The notes beneath the pieces were generated by a model. That model did no database searches, was not told the DNA's origin, and saw only the letters and a program-made list of their open reading frames with translations. This document shows positions 12,358 to 53,800 of a stretch of DNA of 64,000 nt, one piece after another. Numbering within the stretch: the first letter of the stretch is position 1; each line of letters begins with the position of its first letter. A program made the translations under genes and the position numbers. Origin of the DNA: Phycisphaerales bacterium (GTDB lineage Bacteria > Planctomycetota > Phycisphaerae > Phycisphaerales > UBA1924); contig DASPKL010000004.1 in the NCBI GenBank assembly GCA_035628115.1, positions 13,001-77,000 of the forward strand, written 5' to 3'.

Positions 12358-13171
12358 CGCGCCCGGCGGTCTCCGCCGGCTGCTCGCGCTTGCGGCGCGC
12401 GTGCAGGGCGACGGCCCAGGGGATCGTGAGGACGTAGACGCCGGCGAGCCCGGCGAGCGTGAGCCAGGGCCTGCGGATCATCAGCGCCATCAGCACGACG
12501 AGCAGCACGAGAGGCAGCACGGCGTACTTGCGGGGCACGCGCACGCCCTTGAGGGCGAACATCGGCACGCGGCTGACCATCAGCAGCGCGATGACGAGCG
12601 TATAGGCCGCGACGGCCCAGTCCGGCGGACGCCACGCGATCGCGCCCGAGGCGAGCAGGAACGCGGGGACGAGGACGGCCCCGGCGCCCGCGGGCGTGGG
12701 CATGCCGGTAAAGAAGATCGAGCCGCGCGCCTTGGGCTTCTGCTCCCGCGCCTCCCTGGGCGTCGGGACCGGCCCGAGGTTCGCGGTGTACCGGGCCAGG
12801 CGCATCGCCGAGCAGATGGCGAAGGTCATGACGGCGACGAGGCCGAGCGTGTCGTCGAAGCGACGCGTCGGCTCGGCGAGCACCCACTGGTGGATGATGA
12901 GCGCGGGCGCGACCCCGAAGGCGAGGAAGTCCGAGAGGGAGTCGAGCACGGCGCCGAAGCGGCTCTGCACGCGCAGGAGGCGGGCGGCCAGGCCGTCGAG
13001 CACGTCGAAGATGCCGGCGAGCACGATCGCCGCGAGCGACCGTTCCCATTGCTCGAGCAGCACGTAGTGGATGCTCGCGAGGCCCGAGCAGAGCGCGAGC
13101 GTCGTGAGCATGTTGGGGACGAGGACCGCGAGGGGCACGTCGCGCCCGGGCTTGTTGAGTCGGAGGAACAC
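12326..13171 (-). CDS. pssA: CDP-diacylglycerol--serine O-phosphatidyltransferase
   Basis: CDP-alcohol phosphatidyltransferase motif DVLDGLAARLLRVQSRFGAVLDSLSD in a polytopic 281-aa protein. It lies directly downstream of psd. Confidence 0.85.
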   Translation of the reverse strand: MFLRLNKPGRDVPLAVLVPNMLTTLALCSGLASIHYVLLEQWERSLAAIVLAGIFDVLDGLAARLLRVQSRFGAVLDSLSDFLAFGVAPALIIHQWVLAEPTRRFDDTLGLVAVMTFAICSAMRLARYTANLGPVPTPREAREQKPKARGSIFFTGMPTPAGAGAVLVPAFLLASGAIAWRPPDWAVAAYTLVIALLMVSRVPMFALKGVRVPRKYAVLPLVLLVVLMALMIRRPWLTLAGLAGVYVLTIPWAVALHARRKREQPAETAGRVTPHAGQEPV

Positions 13172-31550: not shown

Positions 31551-31662
31551 GAAGCGAGCGTACGTGCCGGGGTGAAGAGGGGGCGAAGCGCAGGCGAGGC
31601 ATTCGGGATTCGTGATTCGGCATCCGCCGCACGCCGCCGCGGGCGCCATGGGCGGACTCGAT

Positions 31663-31809
31663 GACCGCAGAGACACAGAGGTACAGAGAAGAGAAAGACG
31701 GGATTGGGTTCGACACGCGAGAGCAGCGGGAACCCGGGTGCGTCCCCGCCTTCTCTTCCAACCTGCCATTTCTTCTTTCTTCTCTGTGCCTCTGTGTCTC
31801 TGTGGTGAA
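31663..31809. repeat. MITE-like hairpin element, family A (CACAGAG-rich terminal inverted repeats)
   Basis: The left arm GACCGCAGAGACACAGAGGTACAGAGAAGAGAAAG (31663-31697) is the imperfect reverse complement of the right arm ...CTTTCTTCTCTGTGCCTCTGTGTCTCTGTGGTGAA (ending at 31809). The same end motif recurs at 36605-36632, 41709-41728 (degenerate) and 42674-42703. Confidence 0.7.
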
Positions 31810-32187
31810 CCCGCTCGCCCACCACCGACGCCCGGCCGGGTCTCTGCACGAATGCCGAGCCACCAACCCCGGATCCCGATCTCTCTTCCCCGGTCATTGA
31901 ACGCCGAACCTCTTCTTCACCTCTATTTCCTTCCCTCGCCCCCGAACCCAACGTATTGTTTTCGCGAGGTGGTGGCATCCGCGGCGGCGCGCTCTGGCGG
32001 GGCGTGCAAGGCGCGGATCGGCGGGACGCTCTCCCGCGCGAATGGCAGCCCCGCCCGCCGTTGGTCGGCCCGTCGCCGTCCTCCCGCCGGGACAGCGCCG
32101 GGCCAACGCACCTGCCGCGCGGCGAGCACCGCCGCGGGCGCGGGGAAACGCGCGGGGCCGGGAGCGACCGGCGCGCCGACGACACGC

Positions 32188-34194
<2,007 letters not shown>

Positions 34195-34605: not shown

Positions 34606-35430
34606 GTGGACCCCGATGCGTCCCAACCCGCGAGCCCACCCGGTGCGCAGCCGGACGCCGCGCCCGGCGACATCCCCGTCACCGTGACCGACGACCGCAT
34701 CGCGGGCGCGGTGCGCTTCACGCCCGACGACTGGCTCATCTACTGGCGTTGGTATTACCTCGACCGCCCCGAGGCGCTCTCCGCGGAGCGCATGCGATAT
34801 CGCCACGCCAAGAACCAGTATCGCAAGACCTTCCTCGCCGCGGCCGTCGGGATGTTCGCCCTCTGGATGTGGCACGCCCACCGCGTCAAAACCGGCGCCG
34901 ACCTCGAGGGCGAATGGCTCGGCGGGCTCGCGCTGATGCTCGTCCTCGTCGTCTACTTGTTCTCGAACGTCCCCAAGCCGGTCGACCGCTCGGCGCAGCT
35001 CGGGGCCTACCGCGACCAGATCCGGAAGAACCCGCCCGCGCAGCGCGACGGGTGGTGGCGGTTCGAGTGCACGCCGCGCGGGCTCCGCGTGACGGGTGAC
35101 GGCGTCGAGTACGCCGTCGGCTGGAGCCGCGTGCACGGCGTCTACGACCGCCCGGATGCGGTCTTCGTCTACACCAACGGCTGGCCCGCGATCATCCCCA
35201 ACCGCCTCTTCACCGGGGGCGGGCGCGACGCCGCCGTGCGGCGCATCGGCGACTGGGCGCGCTCCGCCGCGGGGAGCGACGCCTCCCGCATCGCCGCGTA
35301 CCTCGCCGACCACGACGCCAAGTGCCCCGACTGCCGCCACAACCTCCGCGGCCTGCGCGACCTCGCCTGCCCCGAGTGCGGCGCGATGATCAGCCGGTAC
35401 GACGTGCCCGAGCCCTTCGCGGCGGGGTGA
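34606..35430 (+). CDS. hypothetical membrane protein, YcxB-like (PH-like) middle region and C-terminal CxxC...CxxC zinc ribbon
   Basis: 274-aa ORF with two hydrophobic segments (FLAAAVGMFALWMW, LGGLALMLVLVVYLF). A segment RGLRVTGDGVEYAVGWSRVHGVYDRPDAVFVYTNGWPAIIPNRLF recalls YcxB-family domains. It ends with CPDCRHNLRGLRDLACPECG. GTG start is uncertain. Confidence 0.55.
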   Translation: MDPDASQPASPPGAQPDAAPGDIPVTVTDDRIAGAVRFTPDDWLIYWRWYYLDRPEALSAERMRYRHAKNQYRKTFLAAAVGMFALWMWHAHRVKTGADLEGEWLGGLALMLVLVVYLFSNVPKPVDRSAQLGAYRDQIRKNPPAQRDGWWRFECTPRGLRVTGDGVEYAVGWSRVHGVYDRPDAVFVYTNGWPAIIPNRLFTGGGRDAAVRRIGDWARSAAGSDASRIAAYLADHDAKCPDCRHNLRGLRDLACPECGAMISRYDVPEPFAAG

Positions 35431-35442
35431 CGCGGGGAACGC

Positions 35443-35589
35443 GAACACAGAGCAAAACGGAGAGAAGAAGAGGAAAACAGAGAGGAGAATACTGGGCTCA
35501 GAAAAGAAGAGCATCGTCTCGCTCTTCTTTTCAACCAGGTTTTCCTCTTCTCTGTCTTCCTCCTCTTCCCTCTGTCTTGCTCTGTGTTC
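35443..35589. repeat. 147-bp imperfect palindrome between convergent genes; a central perfect 12-bp hairpin may act as a bidirectional terminator
   Basis: The ends GAACACAGAGCAA (35443-35455) and TTGCTCTGTGTTC (35577-35589) are exact reverse complements. The inner stem is GAAAAGAAGAGC (35501-35512) / GCTCTTCTTTTC (35521-35532) with an 8-nt loop. The right end overlaps the TAG of the minus-strand gene. Confidence 0.7.
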
Positions 35590-36263
35590 TAGGCGGCCAC
35601 CGTCGCACTCACGCGCTCGCCCCAGGCGCCGACCTCGCCGGTGGTCGTCAGCCACCGGCACTGGTAGTGCACCGTCTTCCCCGCGTGCGCGGGCTCGAAG
35701 GACAACCGCACGCCGTCGCGGGTGATGGTGCGGACGTAGCGGTACGCCTGCTCGTCCTGCGGCGCGGGCGCGCCCGGCTCGGTGAGCGCGACGTAGACCT
35801 CCGCGCCGAGGACGCCGCGGGGCTTGCGCCGCGCGGGGGAAGATTCAGAAGGCACGAAGCGGAGACGGTGTGTAAACCGCGCGTCCTGCTCGACGCTCAC
35901 GTGTGGGGCAGGCGTCCCGCCTGCCACCGCGCCGCCCCCGGCGCCGCGCACGGTCAGCCCCATGTCCGCCCGGTTCGCGTTGGTCGTCAGCGGCATCGCC
36001 TGGATCAGCGCCGCCAATTGCCGCGCTGCGCGCTCGAGCGATGCGCGGGATTCGTTCTTGGTCGTCGTCGCGGCCCTGGCCGCATCGCGCGCGGCGCGGG
36101 CCGCGCTCAGGTCGGTCGCGAACTGCGCGGCCAATCCCTGCACGTCGATCGCGGGGGAGGGGTCCGCGCCGGTGAGCAGCAGGAACTCGTACGCCCGCGC
36201 GCCGAAGTGCTCGGCCCACGTCGCGAAGTCGGCGTCCTCTCTGGGGACGAAGTCGTGGGGCAT
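35589..36263 (-). CDS. hypothetical protein, island-flanking paralog L (helical N-part, FN3-like C-part)
   Basis: ATG 36261-36263 (MPHDFVPREDADFATW...) aligns with the paralog at 41869-42528. Shared blocks are DADF..W, H.LRFV......RR.KP.GVLG.E and GKT..Y..RW....GE.G.WGE...AT.AA. Confidence 0.7.
   Translation of the reverse strand: MPHDFVPREDADFATWAEHFGARAYEFLLLTGADPSPAIDVQGLAAQFATDLSAARAARDAARAATTTKNESRASLERAARQLAALIQAMPLTTNANRADMGLTVRGAGGGAVAGGTPAPHVSVEQDARFTHRLRFVPSESSPARRKPRGVLGAEVYVALTEPGAPAPQDEQAYRYVRTITRDGVRLSFEPAHAGKTVHYQCRWLTTTGEVGAWGERVSATVAA
35903..35927. repeat. REP-like palindrome, family C copy lying in frame inside the paralog L CDS
   Basis: Identical 25-mer to 34318-34342. 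On the coding (minus) strand it is translated as VAGGTPAPH. Confidence 0.8.
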
Positions 36264-36500
36264 GGCGACGGCATCGGCGATTCCCGCGCGCAACTTCACC
36301 GGTACACGCGATCCGCGTGGTCTTCCCCGCGACCCGCGCGGTGCACCCCGCGCGGTCCGCGCGGCCCCACGCCCGCGCCGGGGCGGCCCCCGCGTCCATC
36401 GCGGCCTTCCCCGAGCAACGCGGGGAAACCCCCGGCCGTCGCGGGGAACGCACCGAACGATCCGCGGGCGAGCGAATCCGCGCGCCGGGAGCCCGGCGCT

Positions 36501-36559: not shown

Positions 36560-36604
36560 TCTTCCACCCCGATGCCTCACCTCCGGACGCCGCGGGTGGG
36601 CCGG

Positions 36605-36690
36605 TTCACCACAGAGGCACAGAGACACAGAGGTGGACCGGGTCGCAGAGCGCACGGAACAGGAAGCCCGACCGTGAGGGAGGGCATTCC
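36605..36690. repeat. left 86-nt inverted repeat bounding the low-GC island
   Basis: It pairs with 41643-41728. The outer 20-mer is 18/20 identical and the inner 33-mer is 30/33 identical to the reverse complement of the right copy. Composition drops immediately after 36690. Confidence 0.8.
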
Positions 36691-36830
36691 CACTGATTTC
36701 AGAATCGAGCCATTTGCTGAGTAAGCCAGACGACTTCTGGCTCAAGGCCGACAAATACTACACGCCCAGTCTTTCCATACAGGCCTCGCCGACGAGCTTG
36801 CTTGGAGTAAAGGAAGCCCTACAGTAGGGC

Positions 36831-37724
36831 ATGCTCAACAAGCACCAGATTATTTCAGAACTTAAAGAGCAAATTTTGATTGCTGGGCACGAGCCCACCG
36901 CTCAGTTCTTTGCAGAGAAAGGCGAACCAAAACGATTCGATGATGGCAGTGCCCTGATACTGCAGGGAGATACTACCGATTCTGTTTTCTTTATCCTAGC
37001 CGGTCGGGTCGACGTATTTGTGAATCACCGATATGTCGGCAGTCGGCAGAAACGTGAGCATGTGGGCGAGATGGCACTGCTCCACCCTGCTTTGGCTCGA
37101 TCGGCAACCGTACAGGCGGTCGGTAGCGTGACTGCACTGGAGGTGTCATCCGTAGATTTCATTCATGCGGCAAACAAGCACCCTCCCATCTGGTTGTCCA
37201 TCGCGAGAACATTGGCTGAGCGACTTCGCGAACGCGAGAAGTTGCTCCGCCCGAAGAACCCGAAGCCTGTGATATTCATTGGCTGCGCGTCGGAATCAAA
37301 GGTCATTGCCGACTTGGTGGTTCAACAGTTCGAGTACGACAAAGCCAAGTTTGACGTAGTGCCTTGGTACCACGGCGTGTTTGGTCCGAGCCGATACACT
37401 ATTGATGATTTGATGAAGCAGGTAGACAGGGCCGACTTCGCACTGTTCGTATTCCATCCCGAGGACGTTATCACCAGTCGGGGTGCTTCGACCGACGCGC
37501 CTCGTGACAATGTTGTTTTTGAGCTTGGACTGTTCATGGGGCGAGTAGGACGCGAGCGCGTGTTTATGCTTCAGCCGCACGGCATAGATCTGAAAATCCC
37601 TTCGGATCTCACCGGCATGGCTCCGCTCAAGTACACGACCGGCACCGGCGGTCCGAAACCAGCCGACATGATAACCCCAATTAATTTACTGAAAGAGATC
37701 GTCCTGAAGGAGGGCGGTCGGTAG
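36831..37724 (+). CDS. cyclic-nucleotide-binding domain fused to a TIR-like (CAP12/PycTIR-type) effector domain
   Basis: The N-terminal half carries a CAP/cNMP phosphate-binding cassette, GEMALLHPALARSATVQA, preceded by LILQGDTTDSVFFILAGRVDV. The C-terminal half has VIFIGCASES..., PRDNVVFELGLFMGRVGRERVFML and LKIPSDLTGMAPLKY. These match my recollection of the 'predicted nucleotide-binding protein containing TIR-like domain' family used by CBASS/Pycsar effectors. Confidence 0.8.
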   Translation: MLNKHQIISELKEQILIAGHEPTAQFFAEKGEPKRFDDGSALILQGDTTDSVFFILAGRVDVFVNHRYVGSRQKREHVGEMALLHPALARSATVQAVGSVTALEVSSVDFIHAANKHPPIWLSIARTLAERLREREKLLRPKNPKPVIFIGCASESKVIADLVVQQFEYDKAKFDVVPWYHGVFGPSRYTIDDLMKQVDRADFALFVFHPEDVITSRGASTDAPRDNVVFELGLFMGRVGRERVFMLQPHGIDLKIPSDLTGMAPLKYTTGTGGPKPADMITPINLLKEIVLKEGGR

Positions 37725-38250
37725 TGGCCTTGCGTTCACACGCGGTGTGCGACAGGTAGCTGCCCCGAAGTGTCCGTGGATGCTCCCTTATGCGCATTAT
37801 CGCGTACTCGATCGAGCCGAGGTAGCCGTGATTCCAGTAGTCCCACTCAGCTGGCCAGTTCGTGAGGCCCCGGAGATGTGCGTCGTAGTGGCGGTTGATC
37901 AATGACGTCACGTCATTCACGAACCACTCGCAGCCCTCGTCGACGATGGCACGCGCGGGCTTCCCCTTCCAAGCCATCATGTGTCGCCATACATCCACAA
38001 GAGTCCAGCACATAGGCGGTCCATTGTGCCACTCGGAGCCGGTCTTCATCCAAGGCTCGTAGCACGCCGCTATAGGACCTTTGCGCTTGAGATCGCGAAA
38101 GCTCCATGGCACATGCACAACAATCGGCGCCAAGACTGCAGGTGCGTCGAGTCGACCAGCGACGCGGTACCACTTGCCCGTGACGGGGCTAATGGATGGC
38201 TCGCGAAGCCGTAAAGCCAGCTTCTTGGCGAAGCGAAACGAGTGACTCAT
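37681..38250 (-). CDS. hypothetical 189-aa Trp-rich soluble protein, translationally coupled to the tandem cyclase
   Basis: ATG 38248-38250 overlaps the TGA (38247-38249) of the upstream gene. It has 11 Trp in 189 aa, no TM segment and no recognisable motif. The last 44 nt overlap the 3' end of the convergent TIR gene. Confidence 0.6.
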   Translation of the reverse strand: MSHSFRFAKKLALRLREPSISPVTGKWYRVAGRLDAPAVLAPIVVHVPWSFRDLKRKGPIAACYEPWMKTGSEWHNGPPMCWTLVDVWRHMMAWKGKPARAIVDEGCEWFVNDVTSLINRHYDAHLRGLTNWPAEWDYWNHGYLGSIEYAIMRIREHPRTLRGSYLSHTACERKATTDRPPSGRSLSVN

Positions 38251-39701
38251 GGATGGTGGGGCTTGCTGCTGAACGTTTGGTATTGCCCCGGCGCGACGGA
38301 AACGCGCGTTTGCGCCGGTGCAGCAGCAGCTGAAGCACGAACACGATTTAGCCCCAAAGCACTCGCTTTCTTGAACAACGTTGAAGGCTGAGCGCGGACA
38401 GTGACTGCTGTTTCGAACGCTCGCTTGTAGCTGTCGTGCAAGCGGTCCCAGTCGACTTTGTAGAGGACGAGTTCGCTGGCCTTCGGGTTGATATCACCAA
38501 ACGCTTGGGCGCTTCGCCCAACGCCCTCCCCTGCACCGACCAAGAAGCGCCGGCCTGCCAGAATCACGGCACCCAAATAGACATTGCCGCCAGCGTTGCC
38601 GTGCACCGTACCACCCGCGACCCCGTACGCCCATCCCCCGAAACCACACCCACCTGCCCGGTCGCCCATTTCTTTCTCGAAGTCGAGCGCCAGCTCGACG
38701 AGGCGCTTCGGTGCGGCGTCGTCATAGCTGTCCCGTGTAGCGAAAACGGCAGCGGCTGTGAAGTTGTCGCCCGCCCATGGCAATTGCACCATGCTCTCCT
38801 TGTGGCGCGCGGTAAAGTCGGCAGCGCACTGCATGACCTGGTAGAACTCTGTCGCCAAGGCCTGTAGCTTGGCATCGTCGTTCATGCACTGTTCAACCCG
38901 CTTCGTGAAGCCGTCGAGGTCCGCCCTCATCAGCCACCCGAAGTAGATCTCGGGCTTGTCGGCAACCGGGTCGCCGAAGTCCACCGGCACCGCGCGGGCG
39001 ACCGTCTCTTTCAGGCCGCTTCGAGCCTCCTTATACAGAACCTGTGGCGAGAATTGACGGGCTTCTCTCACCATACCGACGGAATCATCAAGCCTGACTC
39101 TGATCTTGGCGAGGTCTTCAATGACCCACTCCCTTCTCGTCGGGTGCCAGCAGCCGATGTGGAAGTCCTTCAAAGCGCGGTCTTCCTTGTTGCGCTCAAG
39201 CTGCGAATACAGGTACTTCGCAGGCCGGTTGGCAGCGGTGCCCAACGAGACCCACGAGTCGTCGCCGTGCACCCCCCGCTGGGAGACTACCAGTGTCTTG
39301 CCGACATCCATGGTCATGCACCAGCTCTGAACGCGCGATGCGCGGTCGTCGAAGACGCCGTTGTAGATCTGGTGCAACTCTCCAGCGAAGGAGAGAAGCG
39401 GCTCGAAGTCGTCGTTCCCCACAGGGATGCCGATGTGGAGCAGGGATCCCTGAACCTCCATCAGCGTTCCGCCCCGTCGGTCCGCGAGCATCTGAGCGGC
39501 ATGCGATGCACGAGCGACCGAGCGAAGAAACGCCCTTGCGTCATCTGCCGTTGTGGCGTTCTCGTACTTCGGTTGGAAGTCGAGCTTCACGTAGAGGTGT
39601 GCGAGGAGGACCGGTGAGAACGGGAAGCTCCCGGCTTGCTTTCTCGCTTCGAACAGGTCCTTGAAGTCCTTCGCCCGCTCCGCCTTGATCGTTGTCGGCA
39701 T
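38247..39701 (-). CDS. tandem class III nucleotidyl-cyclase-homology protein (degenerate N-domain + catalytic-looking C-domain)
   Basis: ATG 39699-39701 is preceded by GGAG (cacGGAGtagaaccaATG). The C-domain has LMRADLDGFT and AGDNFTAAAVF (the two metal-Asp motifs) plus GVAGGTVHGNAGGNVYLGAV. The N-domain has the same layout (LYVKLDFQPKY, VQGSLLHIGIP, MTMDVGKTLVV...LGTAANRPAKYL), but both Asp positions are substituted. Confidence 0.65.
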   Translation of the reverse strand: MPTTIKAERAKDFKDLFEARKQAGSFPFSPVLLAHLYVKLDFQPKYENATTADDARAFLRSVARASHAAQMLADRRGGTLMEVQGSLLHIGIPVGNDDFEPLLSFAGELHQIYNGVFDDRASRVQSWCMTMDVGKTLVVSQRGVHGDDSWVSLGTAANRPAKYLYSQLERNKEDRALKDFHIGCWHPTRREWVIEDLAKIRVRLDDSVGMVREARQFSPQVLYKEARSGLKETVARAVPVDFGDPVADKPEIYFGWLMRADLDGFTKRVEQCMNDDAKLQALATEFYQVMQCAADFTARHKESMVQLPWAGDNFTAAAVFATRDSYDDAAPKRLVELALDFEKEMGDRAGGCGFGGWAYGVAGGTVHGNAGGNVYLGAVILAGRRFLVGAGEGVGRSAQAFGDINPKASELVLYKVDWDRLHDSYKRAFETAVTVRAQPSTLFKKASALGLNRVRASAAAAPAQTRVSVAPGQYQTFSSKPHHP

Positions 39702-40175
39702 TGGTTCTACTCCGTGACTGCGGCCTAACCGGGCAGAGGGCAACCCCCGTGCCAAAAAGAACTAGTCGGAATTCGGGGGGTAACGGCCCCCTAGCGGCCC
39801 GCCTACGCGGGCGGTCGTGACACCCGGTGGCACCCGGTTGTTGGAGTCTGCCAGAACGGCAGCGTAACCTATGGTTCATTCTGTAACCAAGCTCAACAGC
39901 TGGACTTCTGGACCCCCTAAAGGTGGTCAAGAGACGGCGGCTGCGACGATCCCCAGTGAGATCTTTTCCAAGAGCTACCCACAGCTTCATCTCCGGCTGC
40001 ACCACCCCCTTTTCTCTTGGCCCCGCGCGCCAGCGGGCGGTCCGGGCAGCGTGGGGCTTGAGAAGGAGCAGTGTGCGGTGAACAGACAGCCCGATCGTCG
40101 GACAGAGTGTGCAAAGTCGGTGCGGATGGCCGAGGTCGACAAATGTTGCGGAGACTTGTAGCGGTATCAGGAGCT

Positions 40176-40886
40176 TTACAGGCTCCAGTAGTACGACGAG
40201 CGGTAAATCCGCAGGCTCGGGTGGGCGTTCCAAGTTCGTTCTTCCCACATGCTTTTCGAACCATCCGTGGTCACCTTGACGGTGGAGGCGATTCTATCGA
40301 ACACGTCGCCAGTGATCCAAGTCGAGTAAATGCCATCCCGAAGTGAACACAACTTGGCCGCGTAGTTGGCCGCACGCCCGACCCACACGAGGTCATTCGC
40401 GCCACGAATGCCCGTCCGCGCGACCATAAGTTTGCTCGTATCAATGCCGACTGAGTGTCGCACTTCAAAGTCTTTCAGATTATCCTTGTAGTAGTCCTTG
40501 AGCGCGGGGTTGATGATCTTGGTCACCGCATGATTTATCGCCAAAGCAGCACGGACGGCGGCAGTGTTCTTTGACTCGCCAATAAAAATGCCCATCACCC
40601 GGTCGCCGTCAAACGCGGTGATCTCGCCTTTCTGGTTCCTGATTATCCGACAGGCACAGTTCAAGTAGCATTTGTACACGTCAGCAGCGAAAGTGGCTTT
40701 GTACTTGTTCACCAGATTCGTGCTCTCCGCAAGGTCCGCGTACAAGCACGTGGCGTCTAGGCTTACCCCGGTGCTTCCAAGCTCGATGTCTTCTGTCTCT
40801 GGAACAACCCGACCGTCTGTCATCGTCCACTGGGCCTTGATGATCTTGTTGACTTCCGCGTTGAGATCCTCAGTCATCCCCATCAT
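40176..40886 (-). CDS. single-domain class III nucleotidyl cyclase, Pycsar PycC-like
   Basis: 236 aa with CLYADLAESTNL, ITAFDGDRVMGIFIG, AAVRAALAI and VGIDTSKLMVARTGIRGANDLVWVGRAANYAAKL. This is the typical CHD layout without extra domains. Confidence 0.8.
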   Translation of the reverse strand: MMGMTEDLNAEVNKIIKAQWTMTDGRVVPETEDIELGSTGVSLDATCLYADLAESTNLVNKYKATFAADVYKCYLNCACRIIRNQKGEITAFDGDRVMGIFIGESKNTAAVRAALAINHAVTKIINPALKDYYKDNLKDFEVRHSVGIDTSKLMVARTGIRGANDLVWVGRAANYAAKLCSLRDGIYSTWITGDVFDRIASTVKVTTDGSKSMWEERTWNAHPSLRIYRSSYYWSL

Positions 40887-41408
40887 TCACCCCTGATAGA
40901 GGCCGTAGCAGGCAACCAGCCAAATCGGCGTTCCCGCGAAGAGCCAACCCATAGCGTGCCGCACTGCCCTGTACTTCGCCGTCGCGATCTGTGCATTACG
41001 GTGAGTTTGGAGGATTAAGTCTTCCAAATACTTTCTGTCCGAGCGGCCTTTAACTGCCGCGTCGTATTGAATGGCTGTCATAGACGCAATTCCGCGGAAG
41101 AATATCAATGATCCCTGGGGGCCGACTGTCTGGGGAAAGGTCGCGGCTGCCGACCATGCGATAGAGAAAAGCATTGGTACACTTGCAGCTCCCATGAGAA
41201 CGCCGGACTGCCAAGTAATGCATTCCGGACCCGGAGACACGGTTCCAGCCACGGCAAGCATAGCTGTCGCCACGCCGATCACGACTGGTGTCTTACTGTC
41301 CACGGCGCGAATCCAGTCCAACTGGTGCTGGAAAACAGCTTCTTGGCGAGTGATGGCGCTACTAATGTCCGGGACATCGGGAGTCTGGCCAATCGTTGCT
41401 TCTGGCAT
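40887..41408 (-). CDS. small multi-TM protein, Pycsar PycTM-like effector candidate
   Basis: ATG at 41406-41408. The maximal ORF starts at TTG 41438. About 173 aa, with an N-terminal helix QHQLDWIRAVDSKT followed by TM segments PVVIGVATAMLAVAG and GVLMGAASVPMLFSIAWSAAA, plus a C-terminal TM segment WLFAGTPIWLVACYGL. The stop abuts the cyclase ATG (TGAATG). Confidence 0.6.
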   Translation of the reverse strand: MPEATIGQTPDVPDISSAITRQEAVFQHQLDWIRAVDSKTPVVIGVATAMLAVAGTVSPGPECITWQSGVLMGAASVPMLFSIAWSAAATFPQTVGPQGSLIFFRGIASMTAIQYDAAVKGRSDRKYLEDLILQTHRNAQIATAKYRAVRHAMGWLFAGTPIWLVACYGLYQG

Positions 41409-41642
41409 GTCAATGTTCCGTCGGGCGACCGGTGACAAACTGACCGTCGCCTCGGCAAGTCAAAGAGGCCATTGATGGCAGGGAGAGTAACCGCCATGCG
41501 TCTGGCCAACCGATCATACCCTATGCTGAACTGTCCCGAACGCAAGCATTGTCACACGGTAAGAGGTAGTCGCTCCGCGCCCCTCCGCGACCTCGGCGTT
41601 CAAATCTGTGCGAAAGACCGGCGGGGACCACCGGGCCACGCA

Positions 41643-41728
41643 GGAACGCCCTCCCTGACGGTCGGGCTCCCTGTTGAGCGCGCCGTCGGCTGAATCCATC
41701 TCTTCCCGCTCTGCGCCTCTGCGGTGAA
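41643..41728. repeat. right 86-nt inverted repeat bounding the low-GC island
   Basis: Reverse complement of 36605-36690 (see that feature). It lies 140 nt upstream of paralog R, in the same relative orientation as the left copy has to paralog L. Confidence 0.8.
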
Positions 41729-41868
41729 TCTTCCCGGTTCGTCTTCAGCACCATCCCCCGTTGCCCGATCCCCCGTTCTGTTCCCCCCGCGTGCCGGTGG
41801 ACGGCCCGGGCAGCGGCGGGGCTTGAACGCGTGCGGGCCGACGAATCCACAGACAGGAGCGTGTTCTG

Positions 41869-42528
41869 ATGGCAGATTACATCCCGGGCCCCGACGCCGA
41901 CTTCAACGTCTGGCAGAACAACTTCGTCACCTACGCCAACGCCAACCTCGCCGCCCTCGGCCTCGTCGCCGCGGACATGTCGCCGATCACCAGCGCCCAG
42001 TCAACCTGGGCCACCAACTTCCCCGCCCACGTCGCCGCGAAGCAGGCGGCGCAGGCCGCCAAGGCCGCCAAGGACGACGCCCGCCGCGCCTACGTCGCGG
42101 TCATCCGCCCCCTCGTCCGCCGCCTGCAGGCCTCGACCCAGGTGAGCGACGCCGAGCGCGCCTCGCTGGGGATCACCGTCGAGCAGACGCCCGCGCCCAT
42201 CGGCCCCCCGGCCACCGCCCCTGTCTGCTCGATCGAGTGCGGGGCCCGGTTGCAGCACACGCTCCGCTTCGTGGACGAGACCACGCCCACGCGGCGTGCC
42301 AAGCCCCCGGGCGTGCTGGGCGTCGAGATCTGGCACAAGGTGGGCACCACGCCCCCGGCCAACGAGGGCGAGCTGCGCTTCGTCGCGGTGGACACCAACG
42401 CCCCGTACGTCGTCAGCTACGACGCCGCGGACGGCGGCAAGACCGCGTACTACTGGCTGCGCTGGATCTCCCCCAGCGGCGAACGCGGCCCCTGGGGCGA
42501 GCAGTCCCAGGCGACGATCGCGGCCTAA
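41869..42528 (+). CDS. hypothetical protein, island-flanking paralog R
   Basis: 219 aa, MADYIPGPDADFNVWQNNF... It is alignable end to end with 35589-36263. Both end in ...WGE...AT[IV]AA. Confidence 0.75.
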   Translation: MADYIPGPDADFNVWQNNFVTYANANLAALGLVAADMSPITSAQSTWATNFPAHVAAKQAAQAAKAAKDDARRAYVAVIRPLVRRLQASTQVSDAERASLGITVEQTPAPIGPPATAPVCSIECGARLQHTLRFVDETTPTRRAKPPGVLGVEIWHKVGTTPPANEGELRFVAVDTNAPYVVSYDAADGGKTAYYWLRWISPSGERGPWGEQSQATIAA

Positions 42529-42673: not shown

Positions 42674-42703
42674 CCTCTGTGCTCTCTGTGTCTCTGTGGT
42701 GAA
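42674..42703. repeat. family A end motif, solo copy (CCTCTGTGCTCTCTGTGTCTCTGTGGTGAA)
   Basis: It matches 31782-31809 and the reverse complement of 36605-36632. Confidence 0.7.
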
Positions 42704-42764: not shown

Positions 42765-44267
42765 CTACTTGATCGTTACGTCGTAATACAGCCCGTTCTT
42801 CTCCCGCGTCACCGCCCCGGCGAACTTCGACCAGACCCCGTTCGTCACGCCGTCGGGCGCGGGGCGCTTCGAGGGCTCCTTCTCGTCGGGCTCGCTTGTC
42901 AGGACGCGCCCGCGGCAGCGGCGGCGCAGCTCCGTCATCAGGTCCTTCTCCGGGATCTTTTTCCACCCGCTCGCGACCGCGTGCGCCCTGCTCACCGGCA
43001 CGAACGCGGCGAGGTCCGGGCTGTCCATCATCTCCAGGCCCTGGGCCTTCATCGTCCCGTTGTGCGAGCCGTGGTGCCCGACCTTGTAGAGGGCCACGCG
43101 CTTGAAGATGTCGGCGATCGTCACGATCCCGTCGTTGTCCGTGTCGAGCTTCGAGGCCGCGCCGCTCGGCAGCCGGAACTTGAGCGTCTGCCACGAGCGC
43201 CAGCTCCCCGTCTGCGCGTCCCCCGGGAAGAAGAGGACGCGCCCCGTCTCCACGATCTCGAAGGCCAGCGCGAGGGAGGTGTTGTTGATCCCGACGTCCA
43301 GCTGCAGCGCGAGGCGACCCGTGCTCGTCAGCCAGTCGTTGTCGATGCACCGCCATTCCTCGACGTCCACGCCCTCGTAGAGGTCGCGGATCGCGGCGTT
43401 CCGCTCCTTCGCGTCGCGGGCCCTGCGGGCGCACCAGCGCGGGGCGAAGGGGCGGAACGCGTCGTCGTCCCACGAGCCCGCCGCGGCGATCGCGGCGAGC
43501 CCCAGCGCCGGGCTCGCGGCGTACGCCTCGCCCTCGTCCGGGTTCTCCTTGTAGAGGAAGTTGTAGTTCTTGGGGGGGCCGAGCACGTACATGCGCAGCC
43601 CCGGGATCCCCGCGGGCTCCTCCTCGACGACGCCGGGCTCGAAGAACGTCGGCGTGCGGACGAGCCGCAGGGCCGCGTCCATCGCCTTGTCCACGCTCGC
43701 CGAGAGCTTCTTGCTCTCGAGCCTGAGGTCCGCCGCGGTCTTGCCGTCCGCCCCGGCGTCGAAGCCGAGGAAGCCGAGCTTGTCGCGCACGATCGCGGTG
43801 TCGCGGCGGTTGGTGAGGCCGGCCTCGGTCATCCGCCCGAGCGCCGCGCCGAGCGCGGCGAAGCCCGCCTTCTTCTCGTTGTCGAGCGTTTTCGCGAAGT
43901 CGTCCCCGGGATTCTCCGTCCAGGCCGCCCACACCTCGCCGACCCTGATCGATCGCTTGAAGTCGTCGATGGCGAGGTCGAAGCCGCAGACATGGTCGTA
44001 GTGCTCGTGCGTGACGGCGAGGGCGTCGAGCTTGCCGCCCGTCGCCTTCGCGATGTCGGCGATCACCTTCTTGAAGAGCGCGGGCTTGGCGTCGGCCTTG
44101 ACGACGACGCCGCAGTCGATCATGACGTACTTCACCTGCCCGCCCTTCAGACGGAAGGCGAAGAGGAAGCAATCGCCGAAGCCCATGCGGTAGCAGCGGA
44201 CGGTGACGCTCCCCGGCGGCGGGCTGAGCGTGGGCGCCGTCGTGGCGGCGGGGTTCTTCTTGGCCAT
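42765..44267 (-). CDS. metallo-beta-lactamase-fold hydrolase, ComEC-type (putative nuclease)
   Basis: 500 aa with the MBL motif AVTHEHYDHVCGF, a later FFPGDAQ, and the late motif LYKVGHHGSHNGT characteristic of ComEC/Rec2-like MBL domains. No signal peptide. Confidence 0.8.
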   Translation of the reverse strand: MAKKNPAATTAPTLSPPPGSVTVRCYRMGFGDCFLFAFRLKGGQVKYVMIDCGVVVKADAKPALFKKVIADIAKATGGKLDALAVTHEHYDHVCGFDLAIDDFKRSIRVGEVWAAWTENPGDDFAKTLDNEKKAGFAALGAALGRMTEAGLTNRRDTAIVRDKLGFLGFDAGADGKTAADLRLESKKLSASVDKAMDAALRLVRTPTFFEPGVVEEEPAGIPGLRMYVLGPPKNYNFLYKENPDEGEAYAASPALGLAAIAAAGSWDDDAFRPFAPRWCARRARDAKERNAAIRDLYEGVDVEEWRCIDNDWLTSTGRLALQLDVGINNTSLALAFEIVETGRVLFFPGDAQTGSWRSWQTLKFRLPSGAASKLDTDNDGIVTIADIFKRVALYKVGHHGSHNGTMKAQGLEMMDSPDLAAFVPVSRAHAVASGWKKIPEKDLMTELRRRCRGRVLTSEPDEKEPSKRPAPDGVTNGVWSKFAGAVTREKNGLYYDVTIK

Positions 44268-44282: not shown

Positions 44283-46262
44283 TCAGCCGTGGCGGTGGAG
44301 GAAGGCCAGGGGCTCGTCCCCGTCGAAGGAGGCGGTCATGCCCGTCTCGAGCGACCACTCACGGGCGGCCTTGAGCCGCCGGTCGCGCATGACGCTCTTG
44401 TGGATGCAGTAGCGGCAGCACCCTTCATCGACGTCGATGAGGAGGGTGGCCCCGCCGCGGATGCGCGTGAGCGGGGGAGCGTCGGGCTTCTCCCCGGCAT
44501 CGGCCGCCTTCTGGTCTTTGTCGGTGGCGTAGACCGCGCGGGACTGCACGAGCTCGACGACGAGGTCGTGCGAGGAGGCGCCGCCCTCGTGCACGCGCCG
44601 CGCCGGGCGCACGCTGCGGACCCACACGGCCGGCCCGCGCCCGCCGGAGAGCCGGCGCACGGTGCCGGGGGCGTTGTGGCCGACCTCGATGCCCAGCTCG
44701 CGCGCCCGGTTGGGGTCCTTGCGGAGCCGCTCCACCCACACCGACGTGATGCGCTGCTGGTAGAGCTGGGCGCGGACGAAGAGGTCGCGTCGGTCCTCGC
44801 CGATGCGGAAGTCGCGGATCGGATCCAGGGGCGTGCCGTCCCCGCCCATCGCGCGCTTCTCGCCGGGGCTCGCCGGGCGCGCGAGCTCGCCCGCGAACCA
44901 TCCGAAGCCGTCCGTCGGCTTGCTCGGCGGCTGCCACAGGAGCGACCGCTCCGCGAGGGACGTGACGCCCGGGGGGAGGATGCCCCACGCGCGGAACCCC
45001 TCGATGAACGCGACGCGGTAGCCCATGTCGTCGGTGGGCCGCACGTCCGCGTCGGCGGTCACGAGCGCCCGGAGGAACTCCCCGAACGTCGCCTCCCCCG
45101 GCGGCATGTAGTCGAGCGCCCGGATGCAGAGGCGGAGCGTGTGGGCCGCGGCGCGCGACGCTTCCTCGGCGAGGCTCTCGACGAGCAGTTCCGAGAGTTC
45201 TCCGGGCGGGAGCACGCCCGTGCCCCCGGTCGCGAGGCGGACGATCGGCCGCGTGCGGCGCTCGTAGATGGAGAGGAACGCGCCGAAAACGGCGGCGACG
45301 AGGATCGCCCCCCGCTCGTGCGGCTCGGTGATTCTCCCGAGCTGCGTCGGGTCGGGCGTGCGCGCCTTCCAGCGCCCGTCGGGCCCGATCGTGCCGATGG
45401 CGCTGCGCAGCGCCCCGCGCCGGCCCGTCGCGGCGCCGAACTGCACGGCCAGCTCGCCCAGGGCGTTCTCGGCGCGGAGGTCGCCCCGGGTGCGCGCGAT
45501 CTGGTGGCGCAGAGCCTTCGGGAGGGAGAAGTGGCTCATCAGCGCGACGATGTCGGCGAACCCCTCGTGGAAAGCGAGGGCGTCGGGCCCGGTGCTCTCG
45601 AGGAAGAGGCCGTGCGAGCCGTCCAGCACCGCGTGCGTCACCTCGTGGGCGATGATGTCGTGCGAGAGGCAGGAGAAGACCACGCCCCCCGGGAGGCCCG
45701 CCGCGTCGCCCGCGCCGGCCGGGAAGTAGCCGAACAGAAGCGCTGCCTTGTCCGAGGAGTAGTACGCGTTCGCCTCGCGCAGCGCGTGCGGGTAGACGCG
45801 GAGCCGGCGCACGAAGCGCTTCTCCCATCCTTTGATGAGCTCGCCCCGGTCGTCCTTGTCGCGGCTGTTCCAGAGGACGCGCCGGCCCAGCGCCCGCTCG
45901 AACGTCTCGATCACGCGCATCGAGACGGCGTAGACCATTTGCTGGTGGAAGCGCGGGTCTCCCTCGTCGGGCGTGAGGCCGTCGGTCGCGAGCACGTTGG
46001 CGGCGTTGAGGTCGATCGGCGGGTAGAAGCAGCCGCTCGCGGGGTCGTGGTCGATCACCTCCAGGTATTCGCCGACGGGCCCGCGGGTCATCCCGCCGCG
46101 CCGGCCCGGCTCCGCGGGCGATTCCCACGGGATGTCGACCGTCGTCTCGTTGATGTCCGCGAGCGAGAGGCGCGTCGCGAAGCTGGGGTCGAAAGCGAAG
46201 ACGCGGAGCGTGCGCCGCGTGGGCGTGTCGCCCTGCATGCGGAATGACCGTGCGGCAGCCAT
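44283..46262 (-). CDS. cytoplasmic M4/thermolysin-like gluzincin metallopeptidase
   Basis: 659 aa. IIAHEVTHAVLDG followed about 20 aa later by AFHEGFADIVA parallels thermolysin HExxH...ExxxD. No signal peptide or TM segment seen. A 15-nt gap separates it from the downstream MBL gene. Confidence 0.7.
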   Translation of the reverse strand: MAAARSFRMQGDTPTRRTLRVFAFDPSFATRLSLADINETTVDIPWESPAEPGRRGGMTRGPVGEYLEVIDHDPASGCFYPPIDLNAANVLATDGLTPDEGDPRFHQQMVYAVSMRVIETFERALGRRVLWNSRDKDDRGELIKGWEKRFVRRLRVYPHALREANAYYSSDKAALLFGYFPAGAGDAAGLPGGVVFSCLSHDIIAHEVTHAVLDGSHGLFLESTGPDALAFHEGFADIVALMSHFSLPKALRHQIARTRGDLRAENALGELAVQFGAATGRRGALRSAIGTIGPDGRWKARTPDPTQLGRITEPHERGAILVAAVFGAFLSIYERRTRPIVRLATGGTGVLPPGELSELLVESLAEEASRAAAHTLRLCIRALDYMPPGEATFGEFLRALVTADADVRPTDDMGYRVAFIEGFRAWGILPPGVTSLAERSLLWQPPSKPTDGFGWFAGELARPASPGEKRAMGGDGTPLDPIRDFRIGEDRRDLFVRAQLYQQRITSVWVERLRKDPNRARELGIEVGHNAPGTVRRLSGGRGPAVWVRSVRPARRVHEGGASSHDLVVELVQSRAVYATDKDQKAADAGEKPDAPPLTRIRGGATLLIDVDEGCCRYCIHKSVMRDRRLKAAREWSLETGMTASFDGDEPLAFLHRHG

Positions 46263-50430: not shown

Positions 50431-50801
50431 ACGCGGGGGAGCGCCGGTGAATCCGCGGGGATGGAACCCACGAACCGACATGCGGATGCGCACCCGGTGG
50501 CGCACCGGGAGGATCCGTATTCAAACAGAATCCGAACCGTGCTAGACTTCGTCGGATGAAAAATGCACGTTGGATGACCACAGGAACAAGATTTCTGATA
50601 TGCTGAGGCGACGTGCGCCGCGAGGGAGCGATCCCGTGACAGGCGCGTGTGATTGATCCCGAGCGAGTGTTGCCTTGCGAAGGGCGACGCGAAGCGACGG
50701 GCCGACCCGGGGACGGTTTTCGGGTCGAGAGCAAGCCCGACGAGGCTTGAGACGGTACCGTACCGCGATGTGCATGCGACTCGGGCGGAGCGCCCGGGCG
50801 C

Positions 50802-53800
50802 TTGGAGCCACGCCACATGGAACGCAGGACCTTCCGTTCGGCCCGCTTTGACACCACCCTCGTTGTCGCGCACGGAGCGCGCCGCGCGACGCTCGCGTCG
50901 CGCATGGCCCGCGCCGTCGGGCGGGCGATGGGGCTCCACGAGCGCACCGCGAGCGTGGAATCGCTCGAGTCCCGCCAGCTGCTCGAAGGCAGCTTCGACT
51001 CGCCGCTGCCCCTGCCCGGGCCGGACGGCGACGGCCGCGTCGTCTTCGGCGGGAGCATCAACCCCGCGCTGCCGAGCACGAACAACGACACGTACATCTT
51101 CACGGCGACGCAGGACGCGTTCGTGACGGCGCTGGCGGACACGAGCAACGAGAGCCCGGCGTCTGGCCTCGACACGCGGATCGAGATCTTCAGCGCCTCG
51201 CGCGCGGCGATCACCGCCGGCAACGACAACGGCACGGTCACGAGCGGCTTCCTGCGCGACGGCTGGGCGGGCTTCGTCGCCGAGGCCGGCGAGACGTACT
51301 TCATCCGCGTCTCGAGCCAGGGCACGGGCTCGGGCACGTACACGCTGCGGATGCGCACGACCAACGCGACGTTCGACATCGGCGGCGACGTCGCGCCGCC
51401 CGACGTGACGGTGCCCTCGGGCGTCGCGTACGAGGACGGCACGCCGCCGCCGCTCCCGCCGAACAACCCGCGGGCGATCCTGGGTCAGCTCGGCGGCACG
51501 AACCCGAACATCAACGCGCGCACGCGGCAGGACGAGATCGTCTACAAGTGGACGGCGGGCGGCGAGGACTTCTGGGACAGCCTCGTCATCCTCAACGCGC
51601 AGACCACGGCGGGCAACCTGAACGCGCGCGTGGACACGCACCTGGACATCTACAACGAGCAGGGCCAGCTGATCGTTTCCGACGAGCAGACGGGCCGCCT
51701 GAACGACGCGTTCGCGACCTTCAAGGCCGAGCCGGGCGAGACGTACTACTTCCGCGTCCGCAGCGACGAGGTGTCGAACGCGAACATCCAGCTCGCGACG
51801 GGGCCGTTCTATCTCGTGATGGACGCCATCGCGACCGAGATCGACGTCGACGTCATTTCCCGGCGCGGCATCCTCCAGTGGGAGCGGTACGGCAACTTCC
51901 AGCCCCCGACCGTGCCGTCCAACCCGGCGACGCCCGCGCCGCGGCACCAGGCGTCGCTGTACGAGTTCACGGCGCAGGGGTCGGGGCTCGCGTTCATCAC
52001 GGTCATCCCCGACGCGCCGCCGCTCCAGATCCCGATCGTCGATCCCGCCGTGCGCGTCTACGACGAGAACGGCACGCTGCTGGGCTTCAACAACAACTAC
52101 TTCGGCCGCATCGCGCAGCTGCAGCTGAACCTCGTCGCGGGCCGCAGGTACTTCGTGGTCGCGGATCGTTTCGACACCATCAACGACGAGGCGACGAACC
52201 CGAACGCCGGCCCGTGGTACACGGTCACGGTCGAGGCGCACTACACGTTCAGCAACGACCCGAACACTCCGTTCGACGACCATATCGGCACCGACGAGAC
52301 GGTGACGGGCGACCAGGAGCGCCTCTTCGGCCGCGCGACGGCGCTCAACTTCGGCGACCCGTTCCTGACGCTCGACGCGGACGGGAACCCGCTCCGCGAC
52401 AGGCAGTTCCGCGTGCAGACGTCCGCGACCGGCCGCCTCTGGGCGCCGGGCGATCGCGACCTCTTCCAGTTCACCGCGCCGACCGACATGCTCGACCCGC
52501 ACGCGGGCGACAACGACGACGCGGGCACGTCTCTGTTCGTCGGAGGCATCTTCGAGGAGGCGGACCCGGAGACGCCCTTCCCCGTCGGCTCGCGCTCGCT
52601 TGTGACGTGGGACGCGGCGGATTACTGGTACGTCGGCCCGCAGACCCCGCTGCCGGACGGCACGCCCCGGGGGTTCCTCGACAACCCCGACACGGCGGAC
52701 ACGGACGGCCCTGTCATCTACGCGATGCTGGACTGGGAGCCGATCGAGAACGGCCAGCCGCAGCCGCGCCGGCTCGTGATCGGCGGCGACTTCATCCTCT
52801 CCACCGGCTCCACCGTGATGGTGAACCTGGCGGTGTGGACGTACAACCCGATTGCCGGGCGCTGGGTGTGGAGCAACGAACTGGCCGACGGCACCGACGG
52901 CCCGGTGCGAGCGATCGTCGCCTACGACCCGCCGCAGCCGCAGACGCCTCCGGGCCAGCCCGACCCACCGCCCGGGATCATGATCGGCGGCGACTTCTCG
53001 AACATCATCCTGCCCGCGCCCGCGCCGCCGGTGGAGTCGAACCGCATCGCGCGGTTCTCGCCGGACGACGGATGGGAAGCGATCGAGGGGTTCGACGAGC
53101 CCAACGACAAAGTCTTCGCGTTGCACGTGTACGACCCGCAGGACGCGGGCGCGGGCCGGCCGGCGCAGGACACACCGCCGCTGCCCGAGGTGCTCGACCC
53201 CGAAGACCGGCAGTTGTCGGTGTTCATCGGCGGAGAGTTCGAGGGCGGCATCGCCGTCTACTCGCACCGTGATTCGGGCGGCGGACCAGAAGCAGACGTG
53301 GAGTGGGTGTACGACGGCAGTCTGACGTTCACCGAGCCGCCGCCGGGCGGCCAGATCCCGCGGCGACTCGCGGCGACGGCGCCGCCGGTCGTGGACCGGC
53401 TGGACGGTCCGGTGTACGCCCTGAACCAGGTGCTGGTGCCCGAGCAGGGCGACGTGCCCGAGCACCTCGCGCTGGCGATCGGCGGCGAGTTCACCGGCGT
53501 CGACCTCGACGGAACGCTCAACAGCACCGAGCTCGACGCGGTCAACTTCGTCCTGTACGGCGCCATCGATCCCGACCTTGACCTGCAGGACCCGGCGTAC
53601 CAGCCGGACCTTCAGTGGGATGCGCCCCTCGCGGACGACACATTCGACGGACCGATCTACGCGATGACGACGTGGGACCCGCCGGACATCAACGGGGCCG
53701 AGATCGATCCCTTCCTCGTCATCGGCGGCGAGTTCGGCGGCGACGGCTACGAGAACATCTTCGGGTTCAACGGCGTCGGCGGCGTCCTCCTCGGCGAGAT

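Follow-up and report, generated by a model that had tools for sequence, protein, structure and literature searches.

A low-GC island in a Phycisphaerales genome with two predicted Pycsar-type modules, one of them a three-gene variant with a tandem cyclase and a probably E2-like partner

The stretch of 64,000 nucleotides (nt) analyzed here, hereafter the window, belongs to contig DASPKL010000004.1 of a Phycisphaerales bacterium (GenBank assembly GCA_035628115.1, forward strand, positions 13,001 to 77,000) and contains a compact island of five genes, named A to E (Table 1). Genes E and D form a first module with the gene content of a Pycsar (a pyrimidine cyclase system that confers resistance to phages) locus, while the cyclase gene C, the small gene B, and the effector gene A form a second one, to which most of the following analysis is devoted. 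The GC content of the island was 57.9% compared to 70.0% in the remaining 64-kb window. Among 197 segments of the same size taken outside the island, the mean was 70.0% with a standard deviation of 1.65 and a minimum of 66.6%, which places the island at z = -7.3. The tetranucleotide distance of the island to the rest was 0.047 against 0.014 ± 0.003 (maximum 0.022), equivalent to z = 10.2, and the GC content at third codon positions (GC3) ranged from 0.60 to 0.74 in the five island genes versus 0.92 to 0.98 in six flanking genes. An earlier note on this DNA, made from the letters alone, had described a low-GC island of approximately 5 kb, in which two modules of the Pycsar kind adjoin each other within a segment of foreign composition. 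The computed composition bears this out, down to the three sampled lines on which the note had relied (36841, 37321, and 40441, with 45.0, 50.0, and 43.3% GC), and the profiles and structures described below agree with it.

Table 1. Coordinates of the island, its genes and boundaries, the surrounding features, and the lipase-type effectors found at related loci (positions refer to the window unless a locus is named; aa, amino acids; cNMP, cyclic nucleoside monophosphate; CNBD, cyclic nucleotide-binding domain; MBL, metallo-beta-lactamase; ORF, open reading frame; REP, repetitive extragenic palindromic).
Feature	Position	Strand	Size	Description
Predicted defence island	36691-41642		4952 nt	five genes A-E, two modules
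Gene A	36831-37724	+	297 aa	cNMP-binding and CAP12/Pycsar TIR effector
Gene B	37681-38250	-	189 aa	probably UBC/E2-fold partner of C
Gene C	38247-39701	-	484 aa (~484)	predicted single-chain tandem (pseudo-heterodimeric) class III nucleotide cyclase
Gene D	40176-40886	-	235-236 aa	single-domain PycC, clade-B type
Gene E	40887-41408	-	173 aa	PycTM membrane effector
Spacer between modules	39702-40175		474 nt	no convincing ORF
Left boundary	36589-36690	+		local REP-like repeat copy: core TTCACCACAGAGGCACAGAG (36605-36624), then 41-nt arm (36650-36690)
Right boundary	41643-41740	-		inverted REP-like repeat copy: 41-nt arm (41643-41683), core (41709-41728)
REP-like core TTCACCRCAGAGRCRCAGAG	31661-31680; 31790-31809; 36605-36624; 41709-41728; 42684-42703	+; -; +; -; -		five copies in the window
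speA	31612-34194			left flank
YcxB-like protein	34606-35430	+	274 aa	left flank
Native gene left of the island	35589-36299	-	236 aa	borders the insertion gap
Native gene right of the island	41869-42528	+	219 aa	borders the insertion gap
Asp/Glu racemase				right flank of the island
MBL-fold protein	42765-44267	-	500 aa	adjoins the island
Protein preceding the MBL-fold gene	44283-46262	-	659 aa	zinc-peptidase-like motif
Long single ORF	50751-58781	+	2677 aa	native codon bias
CNBD-lipase effectors	L014:8969-10144; L016:8930-10114; L017:8958-10112			three related systems, all Verrucomicrobiota

Judged by its sequence, module 1 is a textbook two-gene Pycsar system in which a cyclase of the PycC clade and an adjacent PycTM effector are both present. 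The ATG chosen by the gene callers for gene E gives the product listed in Table 1 (it is called in this way on L022), although the open reading frame reaches back to a TTG at 41438. The protein matched the Pfam family PycTM (1.7e-13) as well as the PADLOC models for a 2TM effector (3.3e-39) and for PycTM (4.7e-26). Its stop codon directly abuts the ATG of gene D, which matched the PADLOC PycC model over its full length (1.2e-97) and BcPycC (PDB 7R65) in a phmmer search (2.5e-54). Gene D retains the equivalents of Y50, D94, and R97 of BcPycC (LYADL and DGDR in the alignment), the residues that select the pyrimidine base (PMC11224242). Since these positions are kept, cyclic UMP (cUMP) is the best guess for its product, and gene D is predicted to be a uridylate cyclase.

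Gene C, the cyclase of module 2, is 100% identical to locus VD971_02160 of a Phycisphaerales (Planctomycetota) metagenome-assembled genome and matched neither a Pfam nor an NCBIfam family. Its own family comprises more than 120 clusters at 90% identity. The 486-position PADLOC PycC model PDLC02366 was matched co-linearly by 30 of 39 members of this family, the best at 2.4e-11. An AlphaFold2 (AF2) model of gene C, built on a 39-sequence alignment, reached a predicted local distance difference test (pLDDT) score of 87.8 and a predicted template modelling score (pTM) of 0.86, and consisted of two alpha/beta halves with a disordered linker at residues 221 to 245. A Foldseek search of the PDB with this model ranked 6YII first (E 5.8e-16, template modelling (TM) scores of 0.63/0.65, approximately 15% identity). 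The soluble C1-C2 core of adenylyl cyclase 9 (AC9) came next, and below it human soluble adenylyl cyclase with approximately 25 entries. Each of these proteins is a single-chain tandem cyclase. The structure 6YII is treated as PaPycC, a cyclase of clade A, in which two consecutive cyclase domains are found; clades A to D convert UTP to cUMP (PMC11224242). Based on the structure model, gene C is a distant relative of these two-domain clade A cyclases.

Both metal-binding aspartate motifs of gene C are located in the C-terminal half (GWVMRADLDGFT and QLPWAGDNFT, with D262 and D313). The N-terminal half is devoid of them (HxYIKLD, and EVQGS instead of GD) and keeps VSLGxSANRPAK (N159/K163), the counterpart of VWVGRAANYAAK in PycC; it also aligns to the PycC of the window, gene D, with GD changed to GS. 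Across 110 full-length relatives, RADLDGFT was retained in 104, AGDN in 108, and ANxPAK in 105. This layout is that of animal adenylyl cyclases, in which a composite active site is accompanied by a degenerate pocket, but here the halves come in reversed order. An internal duplication was undetectable by profile-profile alignment of the halves; the evidence for the tandem nature of gene C comes from the structure model together with the motifs. A PDB sequence search with the C profile returned only sub-threshold fragments, albeit on the right motifs of 7R65. At the positions of Y50, D94, and R97 in BcPycC, the family carries an invariant Arg, Ala, and Asn, and for this reason no product is predicted for gene C. 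Two further traits are found at the end of the protein, namely an extra, family-specific beta-hairpin (residues 465 to 479) and a tail of the form [RK]P[YH], after which exactly two residues follow in 74 of the 110 members and three in 17.

The ATG of gene B overlaps the stop codon of gene C as ATGA, which indicates translational coupling. A scan of species-representative genomes, together with metagenome contigs, provided 19 loci with gene C, which amount to 17 distinct systems in addition to the window. Directly downstream of C, phmmer recognized a B homologue in 18 of the 19 loci, and motif and alignment revealed it in the most divergent one (L019); counted per distinct system, B follows C in 17 of 17, again with L019 as the only one recognized by motif and alignment and the other 16 by phmmer. 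These systems occur in Planctomycetota, Verrucomicrobiota, Gammaproteobacteria, and Alphaproteobacteria, the hosts being Phycisphaerae, Planctomycetes, Tepidisphaerales, Verrucomicrobiota (Akkermansiaceae, Brevifollis, and Opitutales), a Porticoccaceae, and a Robiginitomaculum. C and B diverge in step with each other, their pairwise identities being correlated at r = 0.84 (Mantel p <= 5e-4). An exhaustive profile search recovered 277 representatives of the B family at 50% identity, and in nearly all of the best 150 of these 277, B is a standalone protein of 150 to 230 amino acids. Two natural fusions of C and B were found (P0245 with 708 amino acids and P0249 with 677), both in the order tandem cyclase, RPY/RSY motif, linker, and B domain. 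One protein of 316 amino acids (P0177) is a tandem B with a degenerate first copy that lacks the WH...C motif, an arrangement that recalls an E2/UEV pair. Gene B is thus an obligate partner of gene C and not effector-like.

Gene callers often omit or shorten gene B, and as a consequence, protein counts in databases under-represent the family, and a word-indexed search of proteins yielded no more than a few homologues. L020 and L021 hold the locus of the window itself, and the gene calls of their public ENA/JGI records omit the low-GC genes A, B, and E. On L030 and L031, gene B is absent from the gene calls or shortened in them.

With regards to its fold, gene B matched no Pfam, NCBIfam, or PADLOC family, including the PADLOC models for E2/Cap2 proteins of CBASS (antiphage systems that signal through cyclic oligonucleotides). 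In an alignment of 131 B sequences, W74, H75, C81, W88, and H141 are invariant, and the consensus PPxVxCxExWxRxxxDWH-x(3-15)-LCWxLxxxW may be read as the E2 signature PPkvxFxtxiyHPN....GxiCLdiLxxxW. The AF2 model, built on a 7-sequence alignment, has the topology α1-β1-β2-β3-β4-loop-α2-α3-α4, which is the element order of UBC domains. Its top four Foldseek matches in the PDB were UFC1 (twice), the UEV domain of Vps23, and UbcH8, with UbcH7 ranking lower. When the 131-sequence profile was compared with the PDB, E2-25K was the sole sequence match, in an alignment that pairs PP-V and sets WH on WHPN and LCW on ICL, whereby C81 falls on the catalytic cysteine. An hhalign comparison with a small alignment of five human E2s reproduced this register over 52 columns (P = 0.0013). 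In a per-member Pfam scan of the 131 sequences, Prok-E2_B was the most-matched family, and one match to UEV was obtained. Smaller sequence sets gave less: a profile of 18 B sequences returned only noise from the PDB, Pfam scans of 18 B sequences contained no E2-related family in any member, and hhalign of a small B profile against UbcH5b returned nothing. The four lines, each weak alone, agree with one another, and no other fold competes; a UBC/E2 fold of gene B is therefore considered probable.

Gene A, the third component of module 2, combines a cNMP-binding domain (Pfam cNMP_binding, 2.4e-12) with a TIR domain (CAP12-PCTIR_TIR, 4.5e-27) and matched the PADLOC models for PycTIR over its full length (4.1e-88) and for a TIR effector (9.9e-98). 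It is convergent with gene B and overlaps it by 44 nt, an arrangement in which the effector overlaps the 3' end of B and which is found in three systems (window, L004, and L019/L029). The effectors were compared across 18 distinct C-B systems, the window included. Five of these carry a CNBD-TIR effector like gene A, homologues of which follow C-B in L001, L005, L006, and L010. A PycTM effector is present in ten systems; representatives pass Pfam, PADLOC (7.6e-16 and 1.4e-13), or a hidden Markov model made from these proteins, and the rest share the family motif. The remaining three encode a protein with a PycTIR-type cNMP-binding domain, a lipase or alpha/beta-hydrolase domain (GxSxG, read as HSFGT) in place of the TIR domain, and a C-terminal transmembrane segment. 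Their PADLOC match to PycTIR (6e-40) is confined to the first 176 profile positions, and the CNBD-lipase fusion is a candidate for a new class of Pycsar-type effectors. Neither a D-like PycC nor any second cyclase was found in the 17 other C-B systems. As a constant C-B pair is combined with a swapped receptor effector and no second cyclase, gene C appears to be the signal generator and gene A, rather than gene E, its cognate effector, with E-D as a separate unit.

Two of the related loci are plainly located in defence or mobile surroundings. L029 lies between AbiE and a type I restriction-modification system, and L030 contains TraG/TrwB and a resolvase. Directly upstream of C-B-TIR on L001 (403-1472, also L002 and L003), genes with HTH_XRE and Peptidase_M78 domains are found, resembling regulators of the CapH/CapP type. 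This pair was rejected as a conserved component of module 2, as it is absent from the other loci.

Most of what the earlier note had proposed for the individual genes was recovered. PADLOC finds the PycTIR, PycC, and PycTM proteins that the note had called a cNMP-binding/TIR-like effector, a single-domain PycC-like cyclase, and a PycTM-like membrane protein, Pfam confirms both domains of gene A and the PycTM protein, and the AF2 model with its Foldseek matches supports the tandem cyclase. The same PADLOC check has no family for gene B and yields only a partial match for gene C. For gene B, the proposed coupling to the cyclase stands, whereas its description as effector-like does not, given that it is a conserved and sometimes fused partner of C. 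Furthermore, module 2 departs from the two-gene Pycsar architecture, with the third gene B in all 18 systems. As it lies outside the recognition of PADLOC, Pfam, and NCBIfam, a defence finder of the usual kind would report the PycTM-PycC pair and an orphan PycTIR at this locus and nothing else.

The boundaries of the island are marked by two 41-nt inverted repeat arms that are 85% complementary, and the interval between them corresponds exactly to the island coordinates. Each arm belongs to a copy of a local REP-like repeat, whose core occurs five times in the window (0 expected by chance), always in intergenic positions and always within 31.6 to 42.7 kb. The first two copies form a close inverted pair that is native and located upstream of speA; the second pair in "+ then -" orientation brackets the island. 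The repeat may mark an insertion hot spot or represent ends like those of miniature inverted-repeat transposable elements (MITEs). In the simplest reading, an intergenic palindromic repeat received the island within its loop, at a site that is the gap between two divergent native genes. Based on its composition, the geometry of the insertion, and the patchy, context-free distribution of the modules, we infer that the island was acquired horizontally. Two observations weigh against this. The gene content of the island includes no integrase or transposase. When island-free strains were sought, six of six contigs encoding the exact right-flank protein carried the island, and in the metagenomes the MBL flank protein found only relatives that were 32 to 41% identical and lacked the left-flank genes. 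The tRNA and Rfam scans of the window returned nothing, and hence there is no tRNA-linked integration site; tblastn searches of a plasmid collection with C and with B were also empty.

Between the two modules, the ORFs of the spacer (e.g., 39871-40161) are without Pfam or other family match and non-coding-like in sequence. A part of it (39979-40070, approximately 90 to 110 nt) is about 73% identical to 41743-41850, native DNA just beyond the right boundary. This direct repeat may be the scar of two successive insertions or belong to the repeat family.

Taken together, the locus is most likely a horizontally acquired defence islet of approximately 5 kb with two independent Pycsar-type modules that act through cyclic mononucleotide signaling and abortive infection. 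In module 1, infection would lead gene D to produce cUMP, by which the PycTM effector E would be opened or activated. In module 2, the two cyclase-homology domains of gene C would share one active site, to which the C-terminal half contributes the metal-binding aspartates (RADLDGFT and AGDN) and the N-terminal half the Asn/Lys motif (SANRPAK). The resulting cNMP would be read by the cNMP-binding domain of gene A, whose TIR domain would then deplete NAD+. In the manner of E2-only CBASS, gene B would gate gene C by binding to the C-terminal hairpin and the [RK]P[YH]xx tail, which it might also engage covalently. It counts against this picture that the anti-phage function, the nucleotide products, and the mechanism are drawn from homology and gene neighborhood.

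Other arrangements of the same genes have to be considered. All five could belong to one integrated system, in which two cyclases and two effectors are connected by relay, amplification, or cross-activation, for example with cUMP from D activating both PycTM and A and with C-B as a modulator or amplifier of the signal. This would fit the single, compositionally uniform island with one bounding repeat pair and the strong match of D to BcPycC, and several cyclases are present in some Pycsar-1 loci, for which relay-like signaling has been raised (Pucsar preprint 10.64898/2026.08.12.744502). However, the 17 other distinct systems combine C-B with an effector of their own and never with a D-like PycC, E-D is a complete, abutting standard two-gene unit, and the modules are divided by the 474-nt spacer, whose likeness to the flanking DNA hints at separate insertions. 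We therefore regard an integrated system as improbable. BcPycC reportedly pairs with a PycTIR, and given such a pairing, gene A could in principle listen to D, which speaks against its assignment to C. A little less credible still is an inactive gene C that would serve as a nucleotide-binding sensor or regulatory pseudo-enzyme and make C-B a sensing or regulatory add-on. In its favor, both metal-binding aspartates are missing from the N-terminal half of C, the closest solved structure, 6YII, was deposited under the title "adenylyl cyclase-like ATP-binding protein", and C of the window has no significant match to any cyclase profile, its match to the long PADLOC PycC model being partial and only at 9e-5. 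Nevertheless, both Asp motifs in the C-terminal half and the Asn/Lys motif in the N-terminal half are retained in at least 95% of 110 members, which is the composite-site pattern of mammalian and soluble adenylyl cyclases; 6YII is classed with the cUMP-forming clades (PMC11224242), and the C-B loci, which have no other cyclase, always contain a cNMP-dependent effector. Finally, class III cyclases and cNMP-binding domains are common outside defence, and the locus could serve ordinary housekeeping cAMP/cGMP signaling and have an incidentally low GC content. The outputs, a CAP12/Pycsar-family TIR and PycTM, the foreign composition, the AbiE, type I restriction-modification, and conjugative-element genes adjoining relatives, and an unchanging cyclase-B core with exchangeable TIR, PycTM, and lipase domains, as defence systems typically show, make this explanation highly implausible.

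Instead of an E2-like protein, gene B might be a fold-unrelated adaptor, a Cys/His zinc-binding module, a Cys/His peptidase, or a phage sensor, and the conserved C63, H75, C81, H121, and H141 could form a metal site. None of the matches to an E2 family profile or structure reached significance: the Foldseek matches remained at E >= 0.02 with TM scores of 0.30 to 0.33, E2-25K was hit with an E-value of 1.3, Prok-E2_B matched in only 3 of 131 sequences (best E 0.026), and the hhalign probability was 19%. The model is also mediocre (pLDDT 67), with the putative catalytic loop around H75 and C81 below 50, the HPN-like motif has a variable Asn whereas H75 and C81 are invariant, and a fold search against a viral structure library gave nothing useful. 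On the other hand, the fold search, the PDB profile search, the per-member Pfam scan, and the profile-profile alignment all rank the UBC superfamily first, both sequence methods that print an alignment share one register with the invariant cysteine on the catalytic cysteine of E2s, and the predicted order of secondary structure elements is that of a UBC domain. Precedents exist as well: some defence nucleotide synthases have an E2-only partner or are fused to an E2 (PMC12948482), and E2-like genes occur next to Pycsar-related cyclases (10.64898/2026.08.12.744502). An unrelated fold is hence the less likely option, though one to be taken seriously. A catalytic, covalent role of the E2-like gene B is a far more tentative matter than its fold, because the HPN-like Asn varies and the C tail is without glycine; the absence of a terminal glycine, unlike in the CD-NTases conjugated in type II CBASS, and the internal position of the tail in the C-B fusion proteins both argue against it. 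One speculative version of this role is that B acts as an E1-independent E2-like enzyme whose Cys81 covalently captures or processes the [RK]P[YH]xx tail of C, switching cNMP synthesis on or off. If true, ubiquitin-like conjugation would have been recruited to the immunity of class III cyclases, in parallel to E2-CBASS, with an unrelated synthase fold and a non-glycine acceptor tail.

Beyond the island, a few flanking genes deserve mention. The left-flank protein listed in Table 1 contains a YcxB-like domain (Pfam 5.5e-6). The MBL-fold protein (HEHYDH) on the right has a partial PADLOC match to LmuA (6.8e-11) and weak matches to 6A-MBL and Avs1a, and the 659-amino acid protein preceding it has a zinc-peptidase-like motif (HEVTH...HEGFAD) and no family. 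Both genes are native in composition and syntenic in three distant metagenome loci (L026 to L028), and they may be a candidate uncharacterized defence pair. The single ORF of 2677 amino acids has a GC3 of 0.96.

Compared to Pycsar systems as currently defined, genes E-D are a standard member with full-length PADLOC matches. Module 2 shares with them a class III-type cyclase and a PycTIR, and with these the same logic and effector family, and gene C resembles the clade A PycC in structure (6YII, TM 0.63 to 0.65) and in having two cyclase domains one after the other. It differs from them in gene B, an obligate third gene that is outside Pycsar as defined. Gene C itself stands apart by its low identity to 6YII and by being missed by Pfam, NCBIfam, and in practice PADLOC, as well as by the metal-binding motifs in its C-terminal half, its family-specific C-terminal hairpin, and its [RK]P[YH]xx tail. 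Module 2 can be considered a widespread three-gene architecture of cyclic nucleotide defence, mostly found in Planctomycetota and Verrucomicrobiota, which is missed by current annotation tools, and the exchange of TIR, PycTM, and lipase outputs, attached to one PycTIR-type cNMP-binding domain, adds a candidate new effector class to the Pycsar repertoire.

The C1-C2 core of mammalian adenylyl cyclases and soluble adenylyl cyclase likewise have two domains on one polypeptide, with one competent and one degenerate site, and matched the model of C at structural E-values of 1e-11 to 1e-9 over approximately 470 to 490 columns with about 10% identity. In contrast to C, their metal-binding and Asn/Lys-bearing halves are in the reverse order, and the bacterial cyclase is found in a defence context and with a putative E2-like partner. 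Gene C may thus be seen as a bacterial analogue of the animal C1-C2 design, and its degenerate second pocket could be a regulatory site.

In E2-only CBASS, the E2 binds an extra C-terminal helix or beta element of the CD-NTase and is covalently linked to the C-terminal glycine, and CD-NTase-E2 fusions are known (PMC12948482; bioRxiv 10.1101/2022.05.25.493364). Module 2 resembles such a system (SmCdnG-SmE2) in pairing a predicted defence nucleotide synthase with a small standalone E2-like protein, in its natural fusions, in the nucleotide-activated effector that follows, and in the extra conserved C-terminal element on the synthase. However, a CD-NTase has a Pol-beta fold and makes cyclic oligonucleotides, whereas C has a predicted class III cyclase fold, and the C-terminal glycines used for covalent linkage are replaced by the [RK]P[YH]xx tail. 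E2-CBASS is the closest mechanistic precedent, and the relation is one of analogy and not of membership. If gene B is an E2-like regulator, CBASS and Pycsar-type immunity, which are unrelated, would have converged on the same control of the synthase, and C-B, as a minimal two-protein form with natural fusions, would be well suited for biochemistry.

The published description nearest to the C-B pairing is "Pycsar-like-4", a subclade of Pycsar-related cyclases set apart by the association with an E2 ubiquitin-ligase-like gene, for which regulation by ligation was proposed (Chakravarti et al., bioRxiv 10.64898/2026.08.12.744502, August 2026). In this comparison, which was made by description only, the systems studied here differ in that B is a standalone protein of 150 to 230 amino acids, save for the cyclase fusions and one tandem B, and in that no JAB, E1, or WYL genes were found in the C-B loci examined; the tandem architecture of the cyclase is unmentioned in the text of the preprint. 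Module 2 is therefore a three-gene variant of Pycsar that was partly anticipated in silico by the Pycsar-like-4 preprint.

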